Source: Escherichia phage vB_Eco_Bam. From it: 40,137 nucleotides of DNA. This document shows, piece by piece, positions 2,750 through 32,541 of the stretch. The stretch lies in the sequence record OW991346; one strand, given 5' to 3'. Within the stretch, counting starts at the first letter, position 1, and every line of letters starts with the position of its first letter. The notes under the pieces were generated by a model. The model was not told the DNA's origin and did no database searches. It saw only the letters and a program-made list of their open reading frames with translations. The translations under genes were made by a program, and so were the position numbers.

Positions 2750-3247
2750 ATGGTTGACTTTTCTGCTGTTGCTGCTGTTGGTTGTGGTGTTCTGAGCATT
2801 GTGTCTTGCGTCCTGATGTCTAAGCGAAGCATGGACAAGGAAGACATGAAGGTACTGCGCGGCCAAGTCCATGAGTTGAACCAAAAGCTGAAGGCTGAAA
2901 AAGAGTACAACGAGTACATGAAGAAAGACTACAAGTCACGCGAGATTGACTGGATGGGCAAGGTCATTGATGAACAACGGGTAGCCAAGGTGCTGCGTGA
3001 CGAGTTAGGTAAAGCACGTAAGCAACTGAACGAGAAGTTACAACCTGCTACTGTGCAGTGTGACGGGGTGTCTATCCGCTTGGACTCCAAGACTTCAATG
3101 AACTTCTCGGTAGGAAAAGTGATTAAAGAACTGTCACTCTCTGTGCTCGGTAACACTGTGACGGTCACTGTAGTTAAACACAATGGAATTGTTAAATCAC
3201 ATACATTCCAGAACGTGAGCTATAGTTACCGACAAGCGCAGCAATAA
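2750..3247 (+). CDS. hypothetical membrane-anchored coiled-coil protein
   Basis: 165-aa ORF with RBS AGGAGG 7 nt upstream of ATG; N-terminal hydrophobic helix (FSAVAAVGCGVLSIVSCVLM), then a charged heptad-like region, then a beta-rich C-terminus. No recognisable T7 counterpart. Confidence 0.6.
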   Translation: MVDFSAVAAVGCGVLSIVSCVLMSKRSMDKEDMKVLRGQVHELNQKLKAEKEYNEYMKKDYKSREIDWMGKVIDEQRVAKVLRDELGKARKQLNEKLQPATVQCDGVSIRLDSKTSMNFSVGKVIKELSLSVLGNTVTVTVVKHNGIVKSHTFQNVSYSYRQAQQ

Positions 3248-3458: not shown

Positions 3459-4184
3459 ATGTTAGGTGGAGCACCATTTCAGATTGTACAACCTAAAGAG
3501 CCAGTGAAGTTCGGTGGATTAGGTCACGCTAATGTAGGCATAAAGTCATTACCTAAAGACCGTGGTGTATCATGGTCTGACTTCTATAAGGGTCGCTTAG
3601 GTCAGTCCTATGTTAGTCATGTGTACAAGAACTATAAGGTACATATTGAAGCTATTCGCAGATACATCATTCAGCTATCGCTCAGTAAGAACAGCTCAAT
3701 CAAACCACTACGTGTAGTCGAAGCTGGTTGTGGTATCGGGTCTATCACACTGAACCTTGCTGATATGTCAGACCATAAGACAGTTATCTGCTCAGGCTTT
3801 GATGTGTCAGAAGGACAAGTTGTTAACTCTCGTGAGAACGCATTGCTTAACAATGTGGGTGACAGAGTGTCCTTTCATAAAGGTGACATCTTTAATAGTG
3901 ACGTATATAAAGATGCCCACATCATTCACTCTCATGGTGTCTTAGAACACTTCAGTGACGATGACATTATGAAAATCCTATTGACACAACTCAGTTCTCC
4001 TAACGTTCGGTATGTCATTCACTATGTACCACTGGAAGGATGGAAGACTCCCTCTTATGGTGATGAACGCCTGTTACCGCTGACACATTGGGTCAATGAG
4101 TTCGCTCCTACCCGTACCGTTGCGTTCAACGATGGTAAAGACGCTGTGCTAATCTGGGACGTTGAGTCTTTACTTCGCAATTAA
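3459..4184 (+). CDS. class I SAM-dependent methyltransferase (substrate unknown)
   Basis: 241 aa; motif I VVEAGCGIGSIT, acidic post-I residue in ICSGFDVSE, motif II VSFHKGDIFN, motif III HSHGVLEHF. No DPPY/NPPY amino-methyltransferase motif seen. Downstream of a phage promoter. Confidence 0.8.
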   Translation: MLGGAPFQIVQPKEPVKFGGLGHANVGIKSLPKDRGVSWSDFYKGRLGQSYVSHVYKNYKVHIEAIRRYIIQLSLSKNSSIKPLRVVEAGCGIGSITLNLADMSDHKTVICSGFDVSEGQVVNSRENALLNNVGDRVSFHKGDIFNSDVYKDAHIIHSHGVLEHFSDDDIMKILLTQLSSPNVRYVIHYVPLEGWKTPSYGDERLLPLTHWVNEFAPTRTVAFNDGKDAVLIWDVESLLRN

Positions 4185-4200
4185 CACCCACTATTGGAGA
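4179..4200 (+). promoter_or_regulatory. phage RNAP promoter (AATTAACACCCACTATTGGAGA)
   Basis: Exact consensus; overlaps the methyltransferase stop; precedes ligase. Confidence 0.8.
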
Positions 4201-4282
4201 ACATCGTGTATGAACACTGCTGATATTCTCGCTATCAACTCTATGTTTCAATCCTTATACAAATCCATTGGAGGTAATTCAA

Positions 4283-5254: not shown

Positions 5255-5322
5255 TGACTGTAGCCGTTATGTTCTTGGTTGTCGTAGGTCTGAGTATTGC
5301 AGCCTATGTGTCATCTCATTAA
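5254..5322 (+). CDS. possible 22-aa hydrophobic peptide
   Basis: ATG overlaps the ligase stop (TAATG); GGAG 8 nt upstream; product MTVAVMFLVVVGLSIAAYVSSH is a single hydrophobic helix. Very short; speculative. Confidence 0.2.
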   Translation: MTVAVMFLVVVGLSIAAYVSSH

Positions 5323-5342
5323 TTATCACCCACTATTGGAGA
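5321..5342 (+). promoter_or_regulatory. phage RNAP promoter (AATTATCACCCACTATTGGAGA)
   Basis: One mismatch to consensus. Confidence 0.65.
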
Positions 5343-5347
5343 ACATC

Positions 5348-5467
5348 ATGTTTATTTCCTATTGTTCACTGCTTGGTGCATCCTGTGGGTCTGCTCACGA
5401 GACGAACACCGTTGCAAATACTGTGGCGCTCCTTACTCTGAGTGCTTCTGTAAACATTCCTAATTAA
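5348..5467 (+). CDS. possible 39-aa protein
   Basis: ATG immediately after the promoter at 5321-5342; product MFISYCSLLGASCGSAHETNTVANTVALLTLSASVNIPN. No clear RBS. Confidence 0.2.
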   Translation: MFISYCSLLGASCGSAHETNTVANTVALLTLSASVNIPN

Positions 5468-5483
5468 CCACCACTATTGGAGA
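5462..5483 (+). promoter_or_regulatory. phage RNAP promoter, variant (AATTAACCACCACTATTGGAGA)
   Basis: Two mismatches in the upstream half; precedes the dNMP kinase. Confidence 0.6.
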
Positions 5484-5491
5484 ACATCATT

Positions 5492-6232
5492 ATGATTCAT
5501 GTACATCTGCCAACAATCATTGGTATCTGCGCTCATGCACCACGTTCAGGTAAAGACACTCTGGCTGACTACATCGAGCGAGAAGCTGAGACCAAGGGTC
5601 TGCGCTATTTCCGTATTGCCTTCGGTGACTTGCTGCGTGAGGTAGTATCAACACTGTTCGGTATGAACTCTCGTGACTACGTTATGGCTGCTCTGCTGGG
5701 TTCCATGAAAGACGTAGCTCATGGTCGGTACAGTATCCGTAACCTAGAGAACGAATCCCTTAAAGAGTTCCTGATTGGAACCTTGGGATTAGACCCAGAC
5801 GAACCACGTTCCCCACGTTTCTATATGCAGCGTGTAGGCAACGACTACGTTAAGGGTCACTTAGGTCTTGAGAGCATGTGGGTTGACGCTGTGGGTACAC
5901 AGATTACCACTCGCCTGTTGTACGGTAACGCTCCTGACTTGGTGATTATCACAGATGTCCGCTCACCTAATGAGTTCGACTATGTGACTGAATGTGGGTT
6001 CTCGGTTGAAGTTAAGACTCAGGGCTTCCCTGCCTTGACTCACTCTGCTAAACCTGACACCTCTCACCCTGTAGAGAATCACCGCTTTGACTGTGACTTT
6101 GTGTTCACCAATGTGTATGGTGACATGCAGTCCCTTCAGTATCAGCTCCGTGAGTCTGGTCTGATTGATGCAGTCATTGAGCGTAACGAGATATTGAAGC
6201 AACGTGTATTTGAACAGGAGGATTACCAGTGA
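5492..6232 (+). CDS. deoxynucleoside monophosphate kinase, T4 gp1-like P-loop type
   Basis: P-loop context GICAHAPRSGKDTLADYI resembles the T4 dNMP kinase N-terminus (SGVKRSGKDTTADFI) from memory. Unlike T7 gp1.7, which lacks this P-loop. Track ORF begins at TTG 5477; ATG at 5492 chosen. Confidence 0.7.
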   Translation: MIHVHLPTIIGICAHAPRSGKDTLADYIEREAETKGLRYFRIAFGDLLREVVSTLFGMNSRDYVMAALLGSMKDVAHGRYSIRNLENESLKEFLIGTLGLDPDEPRSPRFYMQRVGNDYVKGHLGLESMWVDAVGTQITTRLLYGNAPDLVIITDVRSPNEFDYVTECGFSVEVKTQGFPALTHSAKPDTSHPVENHRFDCDFVFTNVYGDMQSLQYQLRESGLIDAVIERNEILKQRVFEQEDYQ

Positions 6233-6396
6233 AGCGATTCGTTATCCATCTTGAACGTGAAGGTTCCAATGAGGAAGAACGCACTGTTATCTTGGCGCGT
6301 GACCTAGACCATGCACTAGACAAAGCTCACTCTTTGTACGGTGAGGACGTGGTAACTCGTGTCCGTCCTGAATTAACACCCACTATTGGAAACTAA
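6229..6396 (+). CDS. gp2: host RNA polymerase inhibitor (T7 gp2-like)
   Basis: 55-aa ORF missing from the ORF track (below its length cut-off). GTG start 6 nt after RBS AGGAGGA; C-terminal ...GEDVVTRVRPELTP matches the T7 gp2 ...FEVTRVRPCVAPK region. Confidence 0.75.
   Translation: MKRFVIHLEREGSNEEERTVILARDLDHALDKAHSLYGEDVVTRVRPELTPTIGN
6371..6392 (+). promoter_or_regulatory. phage RNAP promoter (AATTAACACCCACTATTGGAAA)
   Basis: Consensus match inside the 3' end of the gp2-like gene. Confidence 0.7.
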
Positions 6397-17235: not shown

Positions 17236-18840
17236 ATGGCTGAAGTTAAACGTGAAGGTCTAGCTGCTGAAGGTGCAGCCAAGACATATGAGCGTTTGAA
17301 GAATGACCGTAACGACTACGTGACCCGTGCAGAGGACTGTGCCAAGTACACCATTCCTAGTCTGTTCCCTAAGGATTCAGACGATGGTGGTACGAGTTAT
17401 ACGACTCCTTGGCAGTCCATTGGTGCTCGCGGTCTGAACAACATTAGCGCAAAGGTAAACCTAGCGTTGTTCCCTGTAGGTGCGCCTTTCTTCAAACTGA
17501 ATATCTCTGAGCTAGAGCTGAAGCAAATCATCACCGATTCGTCTGCACTTCAAGATGTAGCACAAGGTCTGTCGATGGTTGAGCGTATTGTTCTTAGCTA
17601 CATGGAGGCCAACGGTTATCGAACTTCTCTGGTTGAAGCTATTCGTCAACTCTTTGTTAGCGGTAACGTGCTGCTGTACGTGACCAATCCTGACGAGATG
17701 ATGGATGGTGAAATGGCTGGTCTGAAGGTCTACCGATTGCCGTCCTATGTAGTTGAACGAGATGGATTCGATAACGTCTTGCAGATTGTAGCAGTCGATA
17801 AGATTGCCCGCGTAGCGTTACCTGAAGACATCCAATCTGCTATCGCTGAGGAGACTACCGATGAAAACCTGACAGAAGAAGTCGAGATTTACACTCACAT
17901 CTACCGTAACTCTGAGACACAAATGTTCACAGTTTATCAGGAGATTGAGGGTGAAATCGTAGCTGGCTCTGAAGGTGAGTACCCATTGGATGCTTGCCCT
18001 TGGATTCCTGTACGTCTTATCAAGATGCCTAACGAGGACTATGGACGTTCGTTCGTAGAAGAATACCTCGGTGACTTGAAGTCATTGGAGGCTCTGTACG
18101 AGGCTATGATTAAGATGTCCATGATTGCCGCTAAGGTTCTGTTCATGGTTAACCCTAACGGACAGACTCAGGTTCGCCGTATGGCTAAGGCCAACACAGG
18201 TGACTTTGTAGCTGGTCGTAAGGAAGACATCGGAGTATTCCAGTTAGAGAAACAACAGGACTTCAACACAGCGAAGATTGTAGCTGACACCATTGAGGCT
18301 CGCTTGTCGTATGCCTTCATGTTGAACTCTGCGGTACAACGCGGTGGTGACCGTGTTACTGCTGAGGAGATTCGCTATGTGGCTGGTGAATTGGAGGACA
18401 CTCTGGGTGGTATCTATTCGTTACTGTCCCAAGAGTTACAGATGCCTTTAGTCCGCATCCTGTTGCGTGTACTGGAAGCTACCTCGAAGATTCCTAACTT
18501 GCCTAAGGAAGCTGTTGAACCTGCTGTTGCTACTGGTCTGGAAGCTCTGGGTCGTGGTCATGACCTTGACAAGCTGAATATGTTCGTTAACGGTATTGCT
18601 ACTCTGTCTGCAATCCAAGACGAAGACCTGAACATGCGTGACATTAAGATGCGCTACGCTAACTCTCTGGGTATGGACACTGCTGGTATGATTCTGACTC
18701 CTGAGGAGAAACAACAGAAGATGGCTGAAATGGCTCAACAACAGGCCATGATGCAAGGTGGTGCCGCTGCGGGTGGCGTAATGGGTCAAGCTGGTGGTCA
18801 AGCAATGGCTGAACAAGCTGCTCAGATGATGCAACAATAA
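17236..18840 (+). CDS. gp8: portal (head-to-tail connector) protein (T7 gp8-like)
   Basis: 534 aa (T7 gp8 is 536 aa); position immediately before scaffold and capsid; Gln/Ala/Gly-rich C-terminus. Confidence 0.95.
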   Translation: MAEVKREGLAAEGAAKTYERLKNDRNDYVTRAEDCAKYTIPSLFPKDSDDGGTSYTTPWQSIGARGLNNISAKVNLALFPVGAPFFKLNISELELKQIITDSSALQDVAQGLSMVERIVLSYMEANGYRTSLVEAIRQLFVSGNVLLYVTNPDEMMDGEMAGLKVYRLPSYVVERDGFDNVLQIVAVDKIARVALPEDIQSAIAEETTDENLTEEVEIYTHIYRNSETQMFTVYQEIEGEIVAGSEGEYPLDACPWIPVRLIKMPNEDYGRSFVEEYLGDLKSLEALYEAMIKMSMIAAKVLFMVNPNGQTQVRRMAKANTGDFVAGRKEDIGVFQLEKQQDFNTAKIVADTIEARLSYAFMLNSAVQRGGDRVTAEEIRYVAGELEDTLGGIYSLLSQELQMPLVRILLRVLEATSKIPNLPKEAVEPAVATGLEALGRGHDLDKLNMFVNGIATLSAIQDEDLNMRDIKMRYANSLGMDTAGMILTPEEKQQKMAEMAQQQAMMQGGAAAGGVMGQAGGQAMAEQAAQMMQQ

Positions 18841-18860
18841 TTAACACCCACTATTGGAGA
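18839..18860 (+). promoter_or_regulatory. phage RNAP promoter (AATTAACACCCACTATTGGAGA), copy 1 of a duplicated pair
   Basis: Exact consensus, overlapping the portal stop codon. Confidence 0.8.
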
Positions 18861-18965
18861 GTCAACAACAGGCCATGATGCAAGGTGGTGCCGCTGCGGG
18901 TGGCGTAATGGGTCAAGCTGGTGGTCAAGCAATGGCTGAACAAGCTGCTCAGATGATGCAACAAT

Positions 18966-18987
18966 AATTAACACCCACTATTGGAGA
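18966..18987 (+). promoter_or_regulatory. phage RNAP promoter (AATTAACACCCACTATTGGAGA), copy 2 of a duplicated pair
   Basis: Exact consensus, 127 bp downstream of copy 1 within a tandem duplication. Confidence 0.8.
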
Positions 18988-19034
18988 GATGAACAATTTG
19001 TCTCTCCTTAGTGATTAACTTAATGGAGGAAACA

Positions 19035-21247: not shown

Positions 21248-21267
21248 TTCCATTAACATCTGACATA

Positions 21268-21300
21268 AAGGGGAGGCCATTAGGTCTTCCCTTTTTTTTT
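21268..21300 (+). terminator. rho-independent terminator after the capsid gene (T-phi analog)
   Basis: 11-bp stem AAGGGGAGGCC / GGTCTTCCCTT (two G-U pairs) with ATTA loop, followed by nine T residues; 20 nt after the capsid stop. Confidence 0.85.
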
Positions 21301-21929: not shown

Positions 21930-24320
21930 ATGGGACTTGTCTCACAATCAATCAAGAACCTGAAGGGTGGTATCAGTCAACAACCTGACATCCTTCGGTT
22001 TGCAGACCAAGGGGAGAAGCAAGTCAATGCGTTCTCCTCAGAGGTTGAGGGTCTACAGAAACGACCTCCAAGCACTCACGTCAACCGATTGGCAGACCAC
22101 GGTGCTCTCAGTGAGAAACCTTATTGTCACGTAATCAACCGTGATGAACAAGAGAAGTACGTTCTGTTCTTCGGGAACAACACTGTGTACGCATACAATC
22201 TATTGACAGGTTTGTATGTTCCAGTGAACTTCCCTAGTGGTGCTTCTTACATTGCCACTGCGAACCCGCGTAAAGACTTACGAATGGTTACCGTAGCGGA
22301 CTTCACCTTTATCATCAACCGTAATGTGGTAGTACAGGAAGGTTCCACTCGGACACCGATGCACTACCAACAAGGTAAACATGGTCTTGTATATTGCCGT
22401 GGTGGCCAATATGCTCGTACCTATCAGATTATTCTGAATGGTGCAGTGCAGGCTACCTATACGGCTCCACTAGGTGACCAAGTAGCCCATGCCAAAGAGA
22501 TTGACACTCAGTTTATCTTGACTAAGCTGGCAGAGAACTTCAACGCTAACCTAAGCCAACACGGATGGTCAGCGTCAGTTCAGGATGGTTACCTGTGGAT
22601 TCAAGCAGGTGGAAACACTATCACTTCCCTGAAGGTAGTGGACGGCTTCAACGGGCAACTGTTGGATTGTATAACTTATTCAGCACAGAAGACCGTAGAC
22701 CTTCCGGTTACAGCTCCCGATAAATACCAAGTGTTAATCTCAGGAGATGCAGCTCAAGGTCAGGATGACTTCTGGGTTCAGTATGATGGTCAACGCCGTG
22801 TATGGACTGAAATCCCTGCACCTAACATCATTGCTGACCTGAACAAGAATACCATGCCTTGGGTGATGATTCGTGAGGCAGACGGTAACTTTACCCTACG
22901 TCCTACCGATTGGTCTACCCGTGGTAGTGGTGACGATGACACTAACCCGATGCCTTCCTTTGTGGGTCAGACAATCAACGATGTGTTCTTCTTCCGTAAC
23001 CGTTTAGGTTTTCTGAGCGGTGAGAACGTTGTGATGTCTGAGGCAGGGTCATACTTCAACTTCTTCCCTCGGTCTGTTGCTGTGACTTCTGATAGTGACC
23101 CTATTGACGTTGCTGTATCAACTAACCGGATTAGTATCTTGAAGTACGCTGTGCCATTCTCTGAGGAACTGCTATTATGGTCTGACCAAAGCCAGTTCGT
23201 AATGACTGCCGATGGTATTCTGACTCCTACGTCTGTCCGCTTGGATATGACCACTGAGTTCGAGGTGACCGATAGTGCTCGCCCTTACGGTATTGGCCGT
23301 GGTGTTTACTTCATTGCACCTCGCGCTAAGTTCTCCTCAGTGCGGCGTTACTATGCTGTGCAGGACGTTACTCAGGTGAAGAACGCTGAGGACGTTACAG
23401 CTCACGTACCGAGTTACATCCCTAATGGTGTACACAAAGTCACCGGTAGTTCCATTGAGAACTTGCTTACCGTGTTGACCGAGGGTGCTCCACATAAGGT
23501 GTTCCTTTACAAGTTCCTGTACTTGGAAGAACAGATTGCCCAGCAGTCTTGGTCTGAGTGGGACTTTGGGGAAGGTTCTCGTGTACTGTGCTGTGACATG
23601 ATGGGAGCTATTATGCACCTCGTGATTGATGCCCCTTCTGGTATCTACATGGAACGCATTGAGTTCACTCAGAACACTAAGGACTATCCTAACGAACCGT
23701 ACCGTTTGTATATGGACAGAAAGATTCGTTACACCATCCCTAGTGGCGCATACAACGATGACAACTTTGAGACTACTATCTACTTGCAGAACGTGTATGG
23801 TGCTAAGCCTCAGTACGGTAAGTATTTCGTAGTGTTAGAATCTGGTGTCGTGTATGAGTTCGACCCGCCTGATGGTGGTTGGGCTGCGTCAGATGGTGGT
23901 CTTCGCATCAACGGAAACCTTGAAGGTTACAACGTGTTCATCGGTGAGCAGTACACCATGCTGTATCAGTTCTCCAAGTTCCTTATTAAGTCTGTTGATA
24001 CTAATGGTGGTACAACTACTGAGGACATCGGTCGCTTACAATTGCGCCGCGCTTGGGTTAACTACGACAAGTCAGGCGACTTCCGTATCCAAGTTGAGAA
24101 TCAAGGTCGAGTGTTCACGTACAACATGACAGGTCGCCGCTTAGGGACTAAACAACTGGTACTTGGTGAGCAGAACCTAGATACAGGACAATTTAAGTAC
24201 CCTGTGTCAGGTAACGCCAAGGTGGTTAACATTACGTTGCTATCCGATGCCCCAAGCCCTGTTGCTATCATTGGTGGTGGATGGGAAGGTAACTACATCA
24301 GACGTTCATCTGGTATTTAA
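21930..24320 (+). CDS. gp12: tail tubular protein B (T7 gp12-like)
   Basis: 796 aa (T7 gp12 is 794 aa); position after gp11; RBS AAGGAGG. Confidence 0.92.
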   Translation: MGLVSQSIKNLKGGISQQPDILRFADQGEKQVNAFSSEVEGLQKRPPSTHVNRLADHGALSEKPYCHVINRDEQEKYVLFFGNNTVYAYNLLTGLYVPVNFPSGASYIATANPRKDLRMVTVADFTFIINRNVVVQEGSTRTPMHYQQGKHGLVYCRGGQYARTYQIILNGAVQATYTAPLGDQVAHAKEIDTQFILTKLAENFNANLSQHGWSASVQDGYLWIQAGGNTITSLKVVDGFNGQLLDCITYSAQKTVDLPVTAPDKYQVLISGDAAQGQDDFWVQYDGQRRVWTEIPAPNIIADLNKNTMPWVMIREADGNFTLRPTDWSTRGSGDDDTNPMPSFVGQTINDVFFFRNRLGFLSGENVVMSEAGSYFNFFPRSVAVTSDSDPIDVAVSTNRISILKYAVPFSEELLLWSDQSQFVMTADGILTPTSVRLDMTTEFEVTDSARPYGIGRGVYFIAPRAKFSSVRRYYAVQDVTQVKNAEDVTAHVPSYIPNGVHKVTGSSIENLLTVLTEGAPHKVFLYKFLYLEEQIAQQSWSEWDFGEGSRVLCCDMMGAIMHLVIDAPSGIYMERIEFTQNTKDYPNEPYRLYMDRKIRYTIPSGAYNDDNFETTIYLQNVYGAKPQYGKYFVVLESGVVYEFDPPDGGWAASDGGLRINGNLEGYNVFIGEQYTMLYQFSKFLIKSVDTNGGTTTEDIGRLQLRRAWVNYDKSGDFRIQVENQGRVFTYNMTGRRLGTKQLVLGEQNLDTGQFKYPVSGNAKVVNITLLSDAPSPVAIIGGGWEGNYIRRSSGI

Positions 24321-24336
24321 CACCCACTATTGGAGA
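24315..24336 (+). promoter_or_regulatory. phage RNAP promoter (ATTTAACACCCACTATTGGAGA) upstream of the deoxynucleoside kinase
   Basis: Consensus match overlapping the gp12 stop. Confidence 0.75.
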
Positions 24337-24353
24337 CATAACACCCACAACCT

Positions 24354-24379
24354 GAGGGTCACTATATTTAGTGGCTCTC
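24354..24379 (+). other. leader hairpin upstream of the deoxynucleoside kinase RBS
   Basis: GAGGGTCACTA-TATT-TAGTGGCTCTC, 11-bp stem with two G-U pairs, then TTTTAT and the RBS GGAGG. Confidence 0.5.
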
Positions 24380-24397
24380 TTTTATGGAGGAATTTTA

Positions 24398-25027
24398 ATG
24401 AGAATTGTAGTTATTGAAGCTAACATTGGTGCAGGTAAATCCACTTTGTTACAACCTCTTGTGGATGAACTTCAGCTATGGTCTGGTGAAGATTGGGACT
24501 TAGTGATTGAACCAGTAGACCAAGACCCTGAGTTCCACCGTCTGTTGAAAGAAATGATTGCCGATATGTCTAACCCAGACAAGCGTATTCGTTTCCAGAT
24601 GTACCTGACCGAGCAGCGTCAACAACTGTTAAAGAACTTACCTGATGGAAACTATGTCGTTGAACGCTCTCTGTTCAGTGACCTTGTGTTCTCCCAGATG
24701 TATTTCTTAACGACTGAGAAACCTTCTGCCGAGTACATGAATTATTACTACAACATCAAGGAACGTCTGAAAGACTACCCTCAGATTGATTGTGTCGTGT
24801 ACTTAGACCGTGACCCTGCGTCTTGCCATGAGTCCATCATCAAGCGTGGTCGTGAAGGTGAGCACTATGAGATGCACTATCTGGAAGACCTAAAGCGTTT
24901 CCACGATGCGTGTCTACCTCAGATTGCTCGTGAGTATAACACTAAGCTAATCACTGTGGACTTAGGTAAGACCTATGCTCTGCCTTCTGTGATTGCTGCT
25001 GATGTAATGGAGCACTTATATGGCTAA
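24398..25027 (+). CDS. deoxynucleoside kinase (dNK/dCK/dGK family)
   Basis: 209 aa; P-loop IEANIGAGKST, substrate-site EPV, ERS motif (VVERSLFSD) and arginine-rich LID KRGREGEHYE are the defining dNK-family signatures. Own phage promoter and RBS GGAGG. Confidence 0.8.
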   Translation: MRIVVIEANIGAGKSTLLQPLVDELQLWSGEDWDLVIEPVDQDPEFHRLLKEMIADMSNPDKRIRFQMYLTEQRQQLLKNLPDGNYVVERSLFSDLVFSQMYFLTTEKPSAEYMNYYYNIKERLKDYPQIDCVVYLDRDPASCHESIIKRGREGEHYEMHYLEDLKRFHDACLPQIAREYNTKLITVDLGKTYALPSVIAADVMEHLYG

Positions 25028-25517
25028 TGAAATGAAACCTATGTTTACTAAAGTCAAAGCTACTCTGGAACATGCAGACCGCTTGTCTCAGAATTTGTCC
25101 ATTGAGGACTGCAACGAACTGGTAGCCAGCGGGTCTTTACGTGAAGACTATGAACTGCGTGATGTTCGTAATCTGCTTCGCACTTGTGTTCAATTCGGTG
25201 GTGATGTTTATACCATCTTAGACCAATATCAAGTACCTATCATGATTGGTGGGGTAGCTGAAGATATGGGCTACTTTGGTGCTGGCACAGTGTGGATGCT
25301 GACCAGTAAGACTGCTTCAATGCGTCCAGCCACTCAACGTGCAGAACTTCTGTTAATGTTGTCAGACCATCTGAACCTGTGCTTGCAGAAGTACGTTAAG
25401 CTGCACAATGTGATGTGGAAGAAGAACACTGGTCATTATCGCTTCTTGTATAACCTTGGTGCTAAGTTCCGAGAGATTCCAGATAAGCCTGACTTCCTGT
25501 ACTTCAGCTTTGAATAA
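25020..25517 (+). CDS. internal virion protein A (T7 gp13 position)
   Basis: 165 aa; positional assignment immediately upstream of the gp14 homolog. Confidence 0.55.
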   Translation: MANEMKPMFTKVKATLEHADRLSQNLSIEDCNELVASGSLREDYELRDVRNLLRTCVQFGGDVYTILDQYQVPIMIGGVAEDMGYFGAGTVWMLTSKTASMRPATQRAELLLMLSDHLNLCLQKYVKLHNVMWKKNTGHYRFLYNLGAKFREIPDKPDFLYFSFE

Positions 25518-26098: not shown

Positions 26099-28173
26099 GT
26101 AAACTTCAACAGGCTTTAGCCTCAGTTAAAGCTCCCACTGTTTCCATCAAAGGTGTACAAGGTGCAACGTTCACTGCCCAAAATGTGCAAGCACAGCAAA
26201 CCAATCAGACCAACTACTCAGGTCAGTTGTTAGGCATTGCACAGCTAGGGTCACAACTCTATGCAGACTATGTAGACCGTAGAGAGAAACAAGGGAAAGA
26301 AAGAGCTGCGGAAATCCTGATGAAGAAGATGCAGCCTGAACAGATTCGTGAACTACGACAGTCAGGCGCTCTGCTCTATCAAGATGACCCGTACGCCATG
26401 CGTGCTCTTGAACGTGAATTAGGTCGTCAGGAGGCATACAACGTTGACGCTATGGTTCGTGAACGTATTGCCAATGGCGACTACCCAACTCGTGCAGCAA
26501 TGGAACAAGACCGTAGTGATATGATGGAGTCTGCCCGTGATGGTATGGCTCAGACTTACGGTATTGAACCAACGTCAGAGTATTTCCGTGAGGGTATGCA
26601 AGCTGATATTGTTGAGCGCAATATGGCTATCTATGATGCTCAAGCACGTAAGCAAGACCAACGTCACCGCAACGAAGCCCGTGTAGTCATTGAGTCTAAC
26701 TTAGGTTCACTGGTCAATTCGGGCAATGGTGGTCACGTTCTGTCTTACCTTCAGGACATGAAGAACAAAGGTGTTATCCGCAATGATGCTGAGTTTGAAA
26801 CTTATGCTATCAAAGCGGTGAAAGACCTGTCTCAACGTCCTAACAGCATTGACCAAGTTCGTGCCATTATGGACTCGGACATTCCGCTGTACGGAGGTAA
26901 GACAACCTTACGTGCCCGTCTTGGTGAAGAAATGTTCCGTAACTTCGAGAACTCCGCTGCTGAGTCTACATTGCGTAACAATCAAGAGACGCAACGGTGG
27001 TTCACCCAGACGTTAAACTATGTGGCTAACCCAGACCTGACACAAGATGGTGCTGAGTTACAAGCATACGATAACCTTGCGAAGTTAGAACAATTTGCTA
27101 ACCAGACACAAGGTACTGAACAAGCGACTGCTGTACGACAACAAATTGAGCAGGCTAAGATTCAGCTTGAGAATAAACTCCGAGCTAAGAACCAAGCCAA
27201 GCAGAAAGAGTTAGCTAAACAGCAACAGCAATACGTTCGGTTAGCTGCGATTGATGAACGTGTGGAAGGTCGTCTAAGTGGTGACAATCAGTTATCCCTG
27301 AAGTTGGATAGCTTTGAGTCAAATGAAACCACTGGTGAATACACTAAGAATGACCTCAACGCTTACTATCGCATGAAGATGGACGAGATTAAGAACGACC
27401 CTCAAATGTCTCAGGAACAGAAGGCACTCAAGGTGTTGAACATCGGGGCACTACTGAAGGATGAAGACAAAGCGGGATTTAGCGCCCACTTTGGGGAGAT
27501 GATTAACTCGGCCACTCAGGAACTCAACAAGTACGGTGTCGCCTTAGATGCTGGCGCTGAGTTACCTCCGACTCCTACCTTGGATTCCATGATGGAGTTG
27601 TATAAAGCTGATAAGCAGAAGTTTGTCAGTGTGTTCGGTTCAGAGTCGTCTTTGATTACTGACCTAGCGGCAGGTGCTACACTTGGTGTTCACCCTGCAC
27701 GTATCGCACAAGGTCGTATCGTCTTGGATAAGATGCCTAAGGATGCTCGAATGGCTATGTCATTAGAGTTCCAGAACATGATGTCTAAGACTGATGACAT
27801 CTATAACTCGCTGCCTGATACTCAGAAGGAAAGCCTACAAGCTGCCTATGTGGGTATGTCTGGCTTGTCTAATGCAGACCGAGTGAAGGTACTGAACGAA
27901 CACCTGAAAGACCAATATCAATCACTGACTGACCGTGGATGGTTTAACACTGGTCATGTACGTGGAGTAGTCCCTAAGACTTTCCTTATGGGCGACCCTA
28001 CCAATCCATCTTCTGTGGATGTCGGTAAGGCTAAACTTCAGAAGTACATTACCACTGAGTTCGGTGATAACGGCCTGACAAGCGTCTCTGCTGTTGGTGA
28101 TACCCTCCTGTTGTGGAATACCCTGCGTAATACGCCTCGGTATCTGACCAAGGAGGAGTTGATGAAGTATTAA
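26095..28173 (+). CDS. gp15: internal virion protein C (T7 gp15-like)
   Basis: 692 aa; position and size (T7 gp15 is 747 aa); start overlaps the gp14 stop. Confidence 0.85.
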   Translation: MSKLQQALASVKAPTVSIKGVQGATFTAQNVQAQQTNQTNYSGQLLGIAQLGSQLYADYVDRREKQGKERAAEILMKKMQPEQIRELRQSGALLYQDDPYAMRALERELGRQEAYNVDAMVRERIANGDYPTRAAMEQDRSDMMESARDGMAQTYGIEPTSEYFREGMQADIVERNMAIYDAQARKQDQRHRNEARVVIESNLGSLVNSGNGGHVLSYLQDMKNKGVIRNDAEFETYAIKAVKDLSQRPNSIDQVRAIMDSDIPLYGGKTTLRARLGEEMFRNFENSAAESTLRNNQETQRWFTQTLNYVANPDLTQDGAELQAYDNLAKLEQFANQTQGTEQATAVRQQIEQAKIQLENKLRAKNQAKQKELAKQQQQYVRLAAIDERVEGRLSGDNQLSLKLDSFESNETTGEYTKNDLNAYYRMKMDEIKNDPQMSQEQKALKVLNIGALLKDEDKAGFSAHFGEMINSATQELNKYGVALDAGAELPPTPTLDSMMELYKADKQKFVSVFGSESSLITDLAAGATLGVHPARIAQGRIVLDKMPKDARMAMSLEFQNMMSKTDDIYNSLPDTQKESLQAAYVGMSGLSNADRVKVLNEHLKDQYQSLTDRGWFNTGHVRGVVPKTFLMGDPTNPSSVDVGKAKLQKYITTEFGDNGLTSVSAVGDTLLLWNTLRNTPRYLTKEELMKY

Positions 28174-32521: not shown

Positions 32522-32541
32522 TTAACACCCACTATTGGAGA
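32520..32541 (+). promoter_or_regulatory. phage RNAP promoter upstream of the tail fiber gene (phi17 analog)
   Basis: Exact consensus overlapping the gp16 stop. Confidence 0.85.

Follow-up and report, generated by a model that had tools for sequence, protein, structure and literature searches.

The non-TK1 deoxynucleoside kinases (dNKs) of the Pfam family PF01712 include human dCK, human dGK, Drosophila dNK and the dAKs of Mycoplasma mycoides and Giardia. Phage kinases which, like a dNK, feed dNTP synthesis are represented by T7 gp1.7, with its role as a nucleotide kinase, and by the dNMP kinases of T4 (gp1) and T5; these proteins act on dNMPs and not on nucleosides, and are not homologous to the ORF considered here. 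Morons of phages, in their classical form, are independent promoter-gene-terminator cassettes.

The closest relatives of the gene studied here are found in Vibrio and Aeromonas phages (VP4, VP3, N4, ICP3 (orf42), T7-Ah, PZL-Ah8/Ah152, PT2, JELG-KS1 and phiA014S), all 68–77% identical to it over the full length. The window, a stretch of 40,137 nt from Escherichia phage vB_Eco_Bam (record OW991346), corresponds to Escherichia phage vB_Eco_Mak or an almost identical isolate. It carries its orthologue likewise between gp12 and gp13, with the same promoter over the gp12 stop codon and the same 8-nt overlap with gp13, while the host is Escherichia and the hairpin of the leader has another sequence and another shape. 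The gene is not new: the deposited GenBank record names it 'Putative deoxyribonucleoside kinase', and orthologues have already been annotated in VP4, N4 and ICP3 and, overall, in some 35 relatives from Vibrio and Aeromonas, which makes it an ordinary accessory gene of nucleotide salvage. A literature search found no paper characterising this phage dNK and no published assay for its clade.

Family, fold and catalytic residues

The ORF of 209 codons between gp12 and gp13, closed by a TAA at 25025–25027, is a genuine and conserved member of the dNK family. The profile search that had been proposed as a check of the original prediction gave a match to PF01712 with E=8.5e-21; its score of 75.1 bits exceeds the gathering cut-off of 27, and residues 5–178 cover model positions 2–172 of 203. 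The profile of the ORF recovered dCK from the PDB at 7e-18, and all of its PDB sequence matches were dCK, dNK, dGK or dAK, apart from NDUFA10, a relative that has lost catalysis. The best 50 Foldseek matches of its AF2 model (pLDDT 91.4, pTM 0.86) in the PDB were likewise all dCK, dGK or dAK, with TM scores of 0.69–0.80 and E values down to 2e-10. The family assignment of the original prediction was thus confirmed by Pfam, PDB sequence matches, the AF2 model and Foldseek, and every hallmark motif that it quoted for the 209-residue ORF was found: IEANIGAGKST (residues 6–16), EPV (38–40), ERS (89–91) and KRGREGE (149–155).

The first of these motifs holds the P-loop GxxxxGK[ST] in an IEGNI-type N-terminal strand. 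E38-P39-V40 aligns with PEPV of dCK, whose Glu53 is the catalytic residue activating the 5'-OH, and the LID stretch K149-R150-G151-R152-E153-G154-E155 aligns with LRGRNEE of dCK (R188/R192/R194, E197). Among 56 homologues, E7, G13, K14, E38, P39, Q67, R74, E89, R90, R150, R152 and E155 were invariant, while S91 and D95 were conserved in at least 90%. In the HMMER alignments to dCK, the conserved residues correspond to E53, Q97, E127-R128-S129, D133, R192/R194 and E197; Q67 takes the place of the base-binding Gln97, and E155 that of E197, which binds the 3'-OH. Here HMMER separates Q67 from R74 by a gap of 2 residues, and the putative equivalence of R74 with dCK R104 is drawn from the helix spacing and from the ungapped alignment of the M. 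mycoides dAK, whose Gln, Arg and Asp fall on Q67-R74 and D95. Judged from these alignments, Gln67, Arg74 and Asp95 resemble the Gln/Arg/Asp triad known from dCK, from dGK and from the dAK of Mycoplasma. Tyr86 of dCK, which contacts the sugar 3'-OH, aligns, in a helix of low alignment confidence, with Ile54, a position with Ile in the consensus and preceded by Phe or Met, so that the sugar specificity is not readable from the sequence.

The phage protein has in common with dCK, dGK, Drosophila dNK and the dAKs the fold (TM 0.7–0.8), the P-loop, the catalytic Glu, ERS, the base-binding Gln, the LID arginines and the 3'-OH Glu, albeit at just 22–25% identity; it differs in its compact size (209 aa), with no counterpart of the dCK insert and apparently none of Tyr86. 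The gene is under strong purifying selection, with dN/dS values of 0.07–0.16 against eight orthologues. A total of 148 homologues was obtained at E<=1e-5, and blastn of the gene against 5,426 complete E. coli genomes gave no match at the sensitivity of a DNA-level search.

Position in the late operon and distribution among T7-like phages

The features of the locus and of the partner dNMP kinase gene are collected in the table.

Features of the dNK locus and of the dNMP kinase gene (positions in the window)
Feature	Position	Strand	Evidence
Putative dNMP kinase gene, T4 gp1/T5 type	5477..6232	+	PHROG 139, E=4.1e-30
gp12, tail tubular protein B, 796 aa	21930..24320	+	ORF; record annotation
Late promoter of the phage RNAP, positional counterpart of T7 phi13	24314..24336	+	Motif match; position kept in 9 phages
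Leader hairpin (stem 11 bp, loop 4 nt) with UUUUAU behind it	24354..24385	+	Folding; record feature Mak_Term02
Shine-Dalgarno sequence GGAGG	24386..24390	+	Read from sequence; 7 nt upstream of the dNK ATG
dNK-family deoxynucleoside kinase gene, 209 aa	24398..25027	+	Pfam, PDB profile, AF2, Foldseek, dN/dS
gp13-like internal virion/assembly protein	25020..25517	+	Pfam Phage_T7_Gp13, E=3.4e-10; PHROG 308, E=1.2e-20

The late promoter, TATTTAACACCCACTATTGGAGA, has a single mismatch over 23 positions to the consensus of the window, TAATTAACACCCACTATTGGAGA. The 19-nt core occurs there in 16 copies, every one of them on the + strand (0.01 expected). It overlaps the gp12 stop codon (24318–24320), as it does in 9 of 9 aligned relatives, and the records of ICP3 and VP3 also annotate a promoter at this position. 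By analogy with T7, transcription would start near 24332. The next promoter match follows only at 32524, from which we conclude that the same promoter also serves gp13–gp16. In T7, phi13 is all that lies between gene 12 (end at 27226) and gene 13 (start at 27307).

The stem of the leader hairpin occupies 24354–24379, and the 65-nt leader folds with a dG of -19.6 kcal/mol (z=-3.8). Each of the relatives also has a hairpin in its leader, but sequence and shape differ, with z scores from -0.3 to -3.2; a conserved leader hairpin was rejected since these sequences do not align. No match at E<=1 resulted from an Rfam search with leader and gene. A terminator, a 5'-stabiliser and an RNase III site are candidate roles for the hairpin, and with its U-tract 22 nt downstream of the presumed transcription start it could attenuate expression. 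The deposited record lists it as a terminator (Mak_Term02). The Shine-Dalgarno region behind it is kept as AGGAG in 9 of 9 aligned relatives. At the other end of the gene, its stop codon overlaps the ATG of gp13 by 8 nt, identically in the relatives, and no terminator was found after it.

A tblastn search with gp12 found homologues in 2449 phage records, 37 of which had a dNK in the gp12–gp13 slot. These 37 are all the records with a gp12 at least 58.8% identical to that of the window, each with an orthologue 68–77% identical in the same slot, while it was absent from the slot in the next tier (gp12 at most 54.4% identical); in avDM11-UST, for example, 53 nt separate gp12 from an ORF of 135 aa that takes the place of gp13. 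The dNK-bearing clade consists of the Vibrio Chatterjeevirus (VP4, N4, ICP3) together with the T7-Ah group of Aeromonas. Outside this slot, dNK genes have different neighbours: in Aeromonas phage 1233 the dNK and dNMP kinase genes adjoin, in the Colwellvirinae the dNK belongs to the replication module, where it follows genes for an exonuclease and a metallophosphatase, and in a 57-kb phage contig it is found beside NrdD, a PnuC-type transporter, a ligase and a nucleoside 2-deoxyribosyltransferase-like gene (weak Pfam match). Chromosomal homologues with 50–58% identity, in Kluyvera, Enterovibrio and a record labelled Salmonella, were stand-alone genes with uninformative neighbours.

The original prediction had described the gene as a moron with its own promoter, leader hairpin and ribosome binding site, inserted where T7 has no gene. 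The hairpin, the binding site and the difference from T7 were all recovered, and the comparison with relatives that it recommended showed the insertion to be lineage-specific. The promoter, in contrast, is the phi13 counterpart common to gp13–gp16, and a gene with no terminator downstream and a stop codon inside gp13 is not an autonomous unit. The recommended check of composition also spoke for a native and not a foreign gene: with genes of at least 100 aa as the reference, GC was 0.441 (z=-1.34), GC3 0.471 (z=-0.14) and self-CAI 0.753 (z=+0.87), and a recent horizontal acquisition was rejected on these grounds. Similar to classical morons, the dNK is an extra non-structural gene amid conserved structural genes and is absent from most T7-like phages; unlike them, it lacks a promoter and a terminator for itself alone, shares its last bases with the following gene, is of native composition, belongs to a lytic phage and is fixed throughout its clade. 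Lack of its own terminator, overlap with gp13 and ordinary GC content and codon usage show that it is not a classical moron but an insertion of long standing in the late operon, specific to this clade.

Proposed role in nucleotide salvage and alternative readings

We consider it likely that the product of the ORF is an active deoxynucleoside kinase from the non-TK1 family (dCK/dGK/dAK/Dm-dNK) and serves as an accessory enzyme of nucleotide salvage. As the first cistron of the late unit starting from the phi13-equivalent promoter, it would be translated from its strong GGAGG site, with gp13 directly after it through the overlap, and its place in this unit suggests that it is made together with the internal virion proteins; its timing relative to DNA replication is envisaged by analogy with the T7 class III genes. 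The enzyme would phosphorylate the 5'-OH of deoxynucleosides at the expense of ATP, after which the phage dNMP kinase and the host NDP kinase would carry the dNMPs to dNTPs, the predicted benefit being re-phosphorylation of deoxynucleosides during replication. Of such kinases, only thymidine kinase is known in enterobacterial hosts, and this, together with the likeness of the Gln67/Arg74/Asp95 triad, makes dA, dG and/or dC the probable substrates.

The original prediction combined the gene with a dNMP kinase into two consecutive phosphorylation steps of deoxynucleoside salvage. The partner was supported by its PHROG match, and the two consecutive steps are plausible, given a dNMP kinase elsewhere in the genome. 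The Pfam model DNMK scored 26.4 against a cut-off of 27.1 with this second ORF, which had no NCBIfam and no PDB sequence match; an RSGKDT P-loop is visible in its sequence. The ATG at 5492 is its likelier start; a promoter at 5461–5483 would place the transcription start near 5479, and the annotated TTG start lies upstream of this point. The gene occupies the T7 gene 1.7 slot, flanked by the ligase gene and by that of a gp2-like RNAP inhibitor (6229–6396), and is far more widespread than the dNK.

On this salvage reading, one T7-like clade (Chatterjeevirus, the T7-Ah group of Aeromonas phages and, with the present phage in it, the Mak group) would have added a nucleoside-level step that is missing in T7 and placed it under late control. 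Beyond correct annotation the gene matters little; it would gain interest only if the enzyme brought a fitness gain in nucleotide-poor hosts or against dNTP-depleting defences, or if it were a small dNK of broad specificity that could be used in nucleotide synthesis.

A defence-related role is improbable, although it fares best among the alternatives: the dNK, together with the dNMP kinase, would re-phosphorylate deoxynucleosides released by host dGTPase or SAMHD1-like dNTPases and so restore the dNTP pools. E. coli is not known to have a dG, dA or dC kinase, which would favour such a role, as would the Q/R/D triad with its suggestion of purine or dC substrates; the products of host dNTPases, thymidine excepted, may not be re-phosphorylated by Escherichia, Vibrio and Aeromonas, and the phage dNK may recycle them. 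The T7 gene 1.2 for the Dgt inhibitor lies between the RNAP and ligase genes, and the two ORFs in this region of the window matched no phage family, a weak negative evidence in the same direction. The dGTPase defence does turn dGTP into deoxyguanosine (PMC13519002). The argument is, however, purely inferential, and the defence papers examined do not mention kinases; moreover, spending one ATP per nucleoside against a fast triphosphohydrolase would amount to a futile cycle, the dNK is kept across Vibrio, Aeromonas and Escherichia hosts whatever their defence repertoire, and neither a PADLOC match nor a defence context was present around it. A relatedness of the locus to defence systems was rejected, the PADLOC search giving a noise match only (MTase_II, E=0.0024). 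If true, this would be the first kinase-type escape from a dNTPase defence. In a milder version, the dNK may rescue nucleosides that host 5'-nucleotidases strip from the breakdown products of host DNA.

It is very unlikely that the ORF is instead a nucleoside monophosphate kinase, namely a thymidylate kinase, as PHROG 761 describes the orthologues and as RefSeq names several of them. The two families share a common fold, and herpesvirus TKs perform both reactions; Pfam Thymidylate_kin was matched weakly (E=5e-4), as was TIGR00041 (E=3e-5). Both models nevertheless stayed far below their cut-offs (PF02223, 20.2 vs 27; TIGR00041, 23.7 vs 83.25), compared to 75 bits for the dNK model, and this identity was rejected. 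No TMPK appeared among the PDB sequence matches or the best 50 structural matches, ERS is a signature of dNKs, as are the Glu of EPV and the Gln that binds the base, and the genome already has a separate dNMP kinase. By these scores, the names 'thymidylate kinase' and 'proton/sodium-glutamate symport protein' given to orthologues look wrong.

Least probable of all is a non-canonical substrate (ribonucleosides, modified nucleosides or a nucleoside-like toxin) or a non-enzymatic, virion-associated role: replacement of the dCK Tyr reading the 3'-OH/2' position (Ile54 here, Phe/Ile in the consensus), co-transcription and overlap with gp13 among the internal virion genes, and the non-catalytic family member NDUFA10 would fit it, but invariance of all catalytic residues argues against a non-enzymatic function, E155, the counterpart of the 3'-OH-binding Glu, is likewise invariant, and elsewhere the same clade of kinases resides in replication and nucleotide-metabolism modules and not in structural ones.

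Family membership and probable role of the kinase

The assignment of the 209-aa ORF between gp12 and gp13 to the deoxynucleoside kinase (dNK) family, as originally predicted, is sound. The ORF matched Pfam dNK with 75.1 bits (cut-off 27, E=8.5e-21), and a phmmer search of the PDB returned dCK, Drosophila-type dNK, Mycoplasma dAK/dGK and Giardia dAK, followed by NDUFA10; with a profile of 56 homologues the dCK match improved to 7e-18. An AlphaFold2 model built from the 56-homologue alignment was confident (pLDDT 91.4, pTM 0.86), and its best 50 Foldseek matches in the PDB were dCK, dGK or dAK throughout (TM 0.69–0.80).

Residues E7, G13 and K14 of the P-loop, E38 and P39 of the EPV motif, Q67, R74, E89 and R90 of the ERS motif, the LID arginines R150 and R152, and E155 did not vary among the 56 homologues, and S91 and D95 were at least 90% conserved. 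The conserved residues aligned in HMMER with dCK E53, Q97, E127-R128-S129, D133, R192/R194 and E197; this alignment carries a two-residue gap and places Ile54 at the position of dCK Tyr86. The corresponding Gln, Arg and Asp of the M. mycoides dAK aligned without gaps to Q67, R74 and D95, and the Gln-to-Arg spacing is i+7, as in dCK and dGK, which suggests purine or dC deoxynucleosides rather than thymidine as the substrates.

The most likely function, as regards activity, substrates and benefit alike, would be late-expressed salvage. Deoxynucleosides released by host nucleotidases from host-DNA breakdown products, or taken from outside the cell, would be turned back into dNMPs by the dNK and then into dNTPs by the phage dNMP kinase and the host NDP kinase. 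Among deoxynucleoside kinases, enterobacteria are known to possess only thymidine kinase, so that a phage dA/dG/dC kinase would supply a capacity missing in the host. A non-canonical substrate or a structural role is less well supported, as is counter-defence against dNTPase-based immunity; the defence papers examined make no mention of kinases and PADLOC gave no meaningful match. A TMP-kinase activity also has less support, with the ORF scoring 20.2 bits, below the cut-off, against Pfam Thymidylate_kin and 23.7 against the 83.25 required for TIGR00041 dTMP kinase.

Gene context and expression signals

The gene is already known: it is annotated as a putative enzyme in this record and across its clade (MAK_033, 'Putative deoxyribonucleoside kinase', in the deposited record), and holds nothing surprising to a specialist. 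The window belongs to Escherichia phage vB_Eco_Mak or an almost identical isolate: both Mak (OX001577.1) and vB_Eco_Titus were 100% identical to a 1.8-kb query around the gene. The ORF has the ribosome-binding site ascribed to it, GGAGG 7 nt before the ATG, and its stop shares an 8-nt overlap with the gp13 ATG.

Coordinates of the kinase genes, their neighbours and signals (window positions unless a homologue locus is named)
Feature	Position	Strand	Remarks
Promoter at partner kinase	5461-5483	+	inferred +1 ~5479
Partner kinase ORF	5477-6232	+	PHROG 139 'deoxynucleoside monophosphate kinase', E=4e-30
gp2-like host RNAP inhibitor	6229-6396		PHROG 1307
Terminator-like hairpin	21267-21294		strong; 12-bp stem, then T7 (T run); just 3' of major capsid gene; Mak_Term01 in record
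gp12	21930-24320	+	ORF upstream of dNK
Promoter before dNK	24314-24336	+	one mismatch to consensus; overlaps gp12 stop codon
Leader hairpin	24354-24379	+	11-bp, then UUUUAU; within leader, inferred +1 near 24332
dNK ORF	24398-25027	+	209 aa; ATG 24398, TAA ending 25027
gp13-like gene	25020-25517	+	downstream of dNK; Pfam Phage_T7_Gp13 E=3.4e-10; PHROG 308
Stand-alone homologue, Kluyvera intermedia	L007 8001-8630		
Stand-alone homologue, record labelled Salmonella Choleraesuis	L018 8001-8633		
Stand-alone homologue, Enterovibrio calviensis	L009 8001-8630		

The phage-RNAP promoter consensus of the window is the 23-nt TAATTAACACCCACTATTGGAGA, whose 19-nt core matched at 16 sites, every one of them on the + strand (0.01 expected). 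The promoter before dNK corresponds in position to T7 phi13; its placement over the gp12 stop was kept in all nine phages aligned, and the ICP3 and VP3 records annotate a promoter at this site. Since the next downstream match lies at 32524, it serves dNK and gp13-gp16 jointly. The gene is thus not an autonomous moron with its own promoter, as had been proposed. Its composition is also unremarkable among the phage's genes (GC 0.441, z=-1.3; GC3 z=-0.1; self-referenced CAI z=+0.9), and the dN/dS values against eight orthologues were 0.07–0.16 (Nei-Gojobori), unsaturated pairs included, such as T7-Ah and PT2 at 0.068. The gene is real and old.

The predicted leader hairpin was recovered (leader fold dG -19.6 kcal/mol, z=-3.8). 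It is annotated as a terminator in the deposited record, had no match in Rfam, and may partially terminate transcription, stabilise the 5' end or serve in processing. The leaders of relatives hold non-homologous hairpins, among them an imperfect stem of about 20 bp in Vibrio phages.

Distribution among relatives

The tblastn search detected dNK in 53 phage records, 37 of them with 67.5–100% identity: Mak, Titus, six Aeromonas Studiervirinae and the Vibrio cholerae Chatterjeevirus (VP3, VP4, N4, ICP3, JSF, Rostov). Wherever flanking annotation existed in the 37 records, the gene lay immediately 5' of gp13. Exactly these 37 carried a gp12 at least 58.8% identical to that of Mak, while the next gp12 tier (at most 54.4%) lacked dNK. 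This makes the insertion specific to the clade yet fixed within it; it occurs at this position in ~1.5% of 2449 gp12-bearing records. In T7, as had been stated, the interval between genes 12 and 13 holds only promoter phi13. In avDM11-UST, from the lower gp12 tier, a 135-aa ORF occupies the gp13 slot 53 nt after gp12. Because of the HMM scores, two names given to orthologues look wrong: 'proton/sodium-glutamate symport protein' in Vibrio phages JSF11, JSF20, JSF24 and JSF30-36, and 'thymidylate kinase' in RefSeq ICP3, N4 and VP4 (NC_015159, NC_013651, NC_007149).

Members of this dNK clade that are more distant were located in nucleotide or replication modules. In the Colwellvirinae phages HJG (Aeromonas; L004 3991-5618) and 15E36.1 (Vibrio; L005 4246-5606) dNK lies downstream of an exonuclease and a metallophosphatase gene, directly after and overlapping the latter, and in Aeromonas phage 1233 it adjoins a dNMP kinase gene. 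On a 57.6-kb metagenomic phage contig (L019 980-6624), a dNK of 64% identity is grouped with a MazG-like PRA-PH gene, a PnuC-type transporter, the anaerobic RNR NrdD, a ligase and a nucleoside 2-deoxyribosyltransferase-like gene (weak Pfam match); the block resembles a more complete set of genes for salvaging and importing deoxynucleosides. Chromosomal stand-alone homologues, 50–58% identical, were found in Kluyvera, Leclercia, Pantoea, Mixta, Enterovibrio and a Salmonella-labelled record. No obvious prophage was seen around the Kluyvera, Salmonella-labelled and Enterovibrio copies, except that the last lies near DUF3310 and AAA_25 genes, and 5,426 complete E. coli genomes gave no DNA-level match.

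The partner kinase and other features of the window

The second kinase proposed for the salvage route, a putative T4 gp1/T5-type dNMP kinase with an RSGKDT P-loop, was supported by PHROG 139, while its Pfam DNMK score (26.4) fell marginally under the cut-off of 27.1. The predicted ATG at 5492 is favoured as its start, since transcription is inferred to begin only downstream of the record's TTG (5477). Flanked by the ligase and the gp2-like inhibitor, it occupies the slot of T7 gene 1.7, a non-homologous nucleotide kinase, and may be its non-orthologous replacement. It is far commoner than dNK, with 210 records that come mostly from Pseudomonas gh-1-like phages; the Titus record names its product 'virion structural protein'.

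Neither ORF 2750-3247 nor ORF 3459-4184, between the RNAP and ligase genes, matched a PHROG, the record noting a methyltransferase domain in the latter; nothing recognisable as a homologue of the Dgt inhibitor encoded by T7 gene 1.2 was seen. The hairpin behind the major capsid gene is the equivalent of T7 Tphi. At 18735-18988, between the portal and scaffold genes, a 127-bp sequence with a phage promoter inside stands twice in tandem, the copies being 100% identical. OX001577.1 has a single copy there but identical 127-bp ends, a pattern typical of a k=127 assembler overlap left after re-orientation, which makes the duplication a probable artefact. Scattered SNPs and 1-nt indels of the window relative to OX001577.1 indicate a near-identical isolate or version. 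At 5461-5494, 4171-4211 and 5313-5353 a start codon follows the promoter within 9–10 nt, so that the initially transcribed GGAGA would double as a Shine-Dalgarno sequence.
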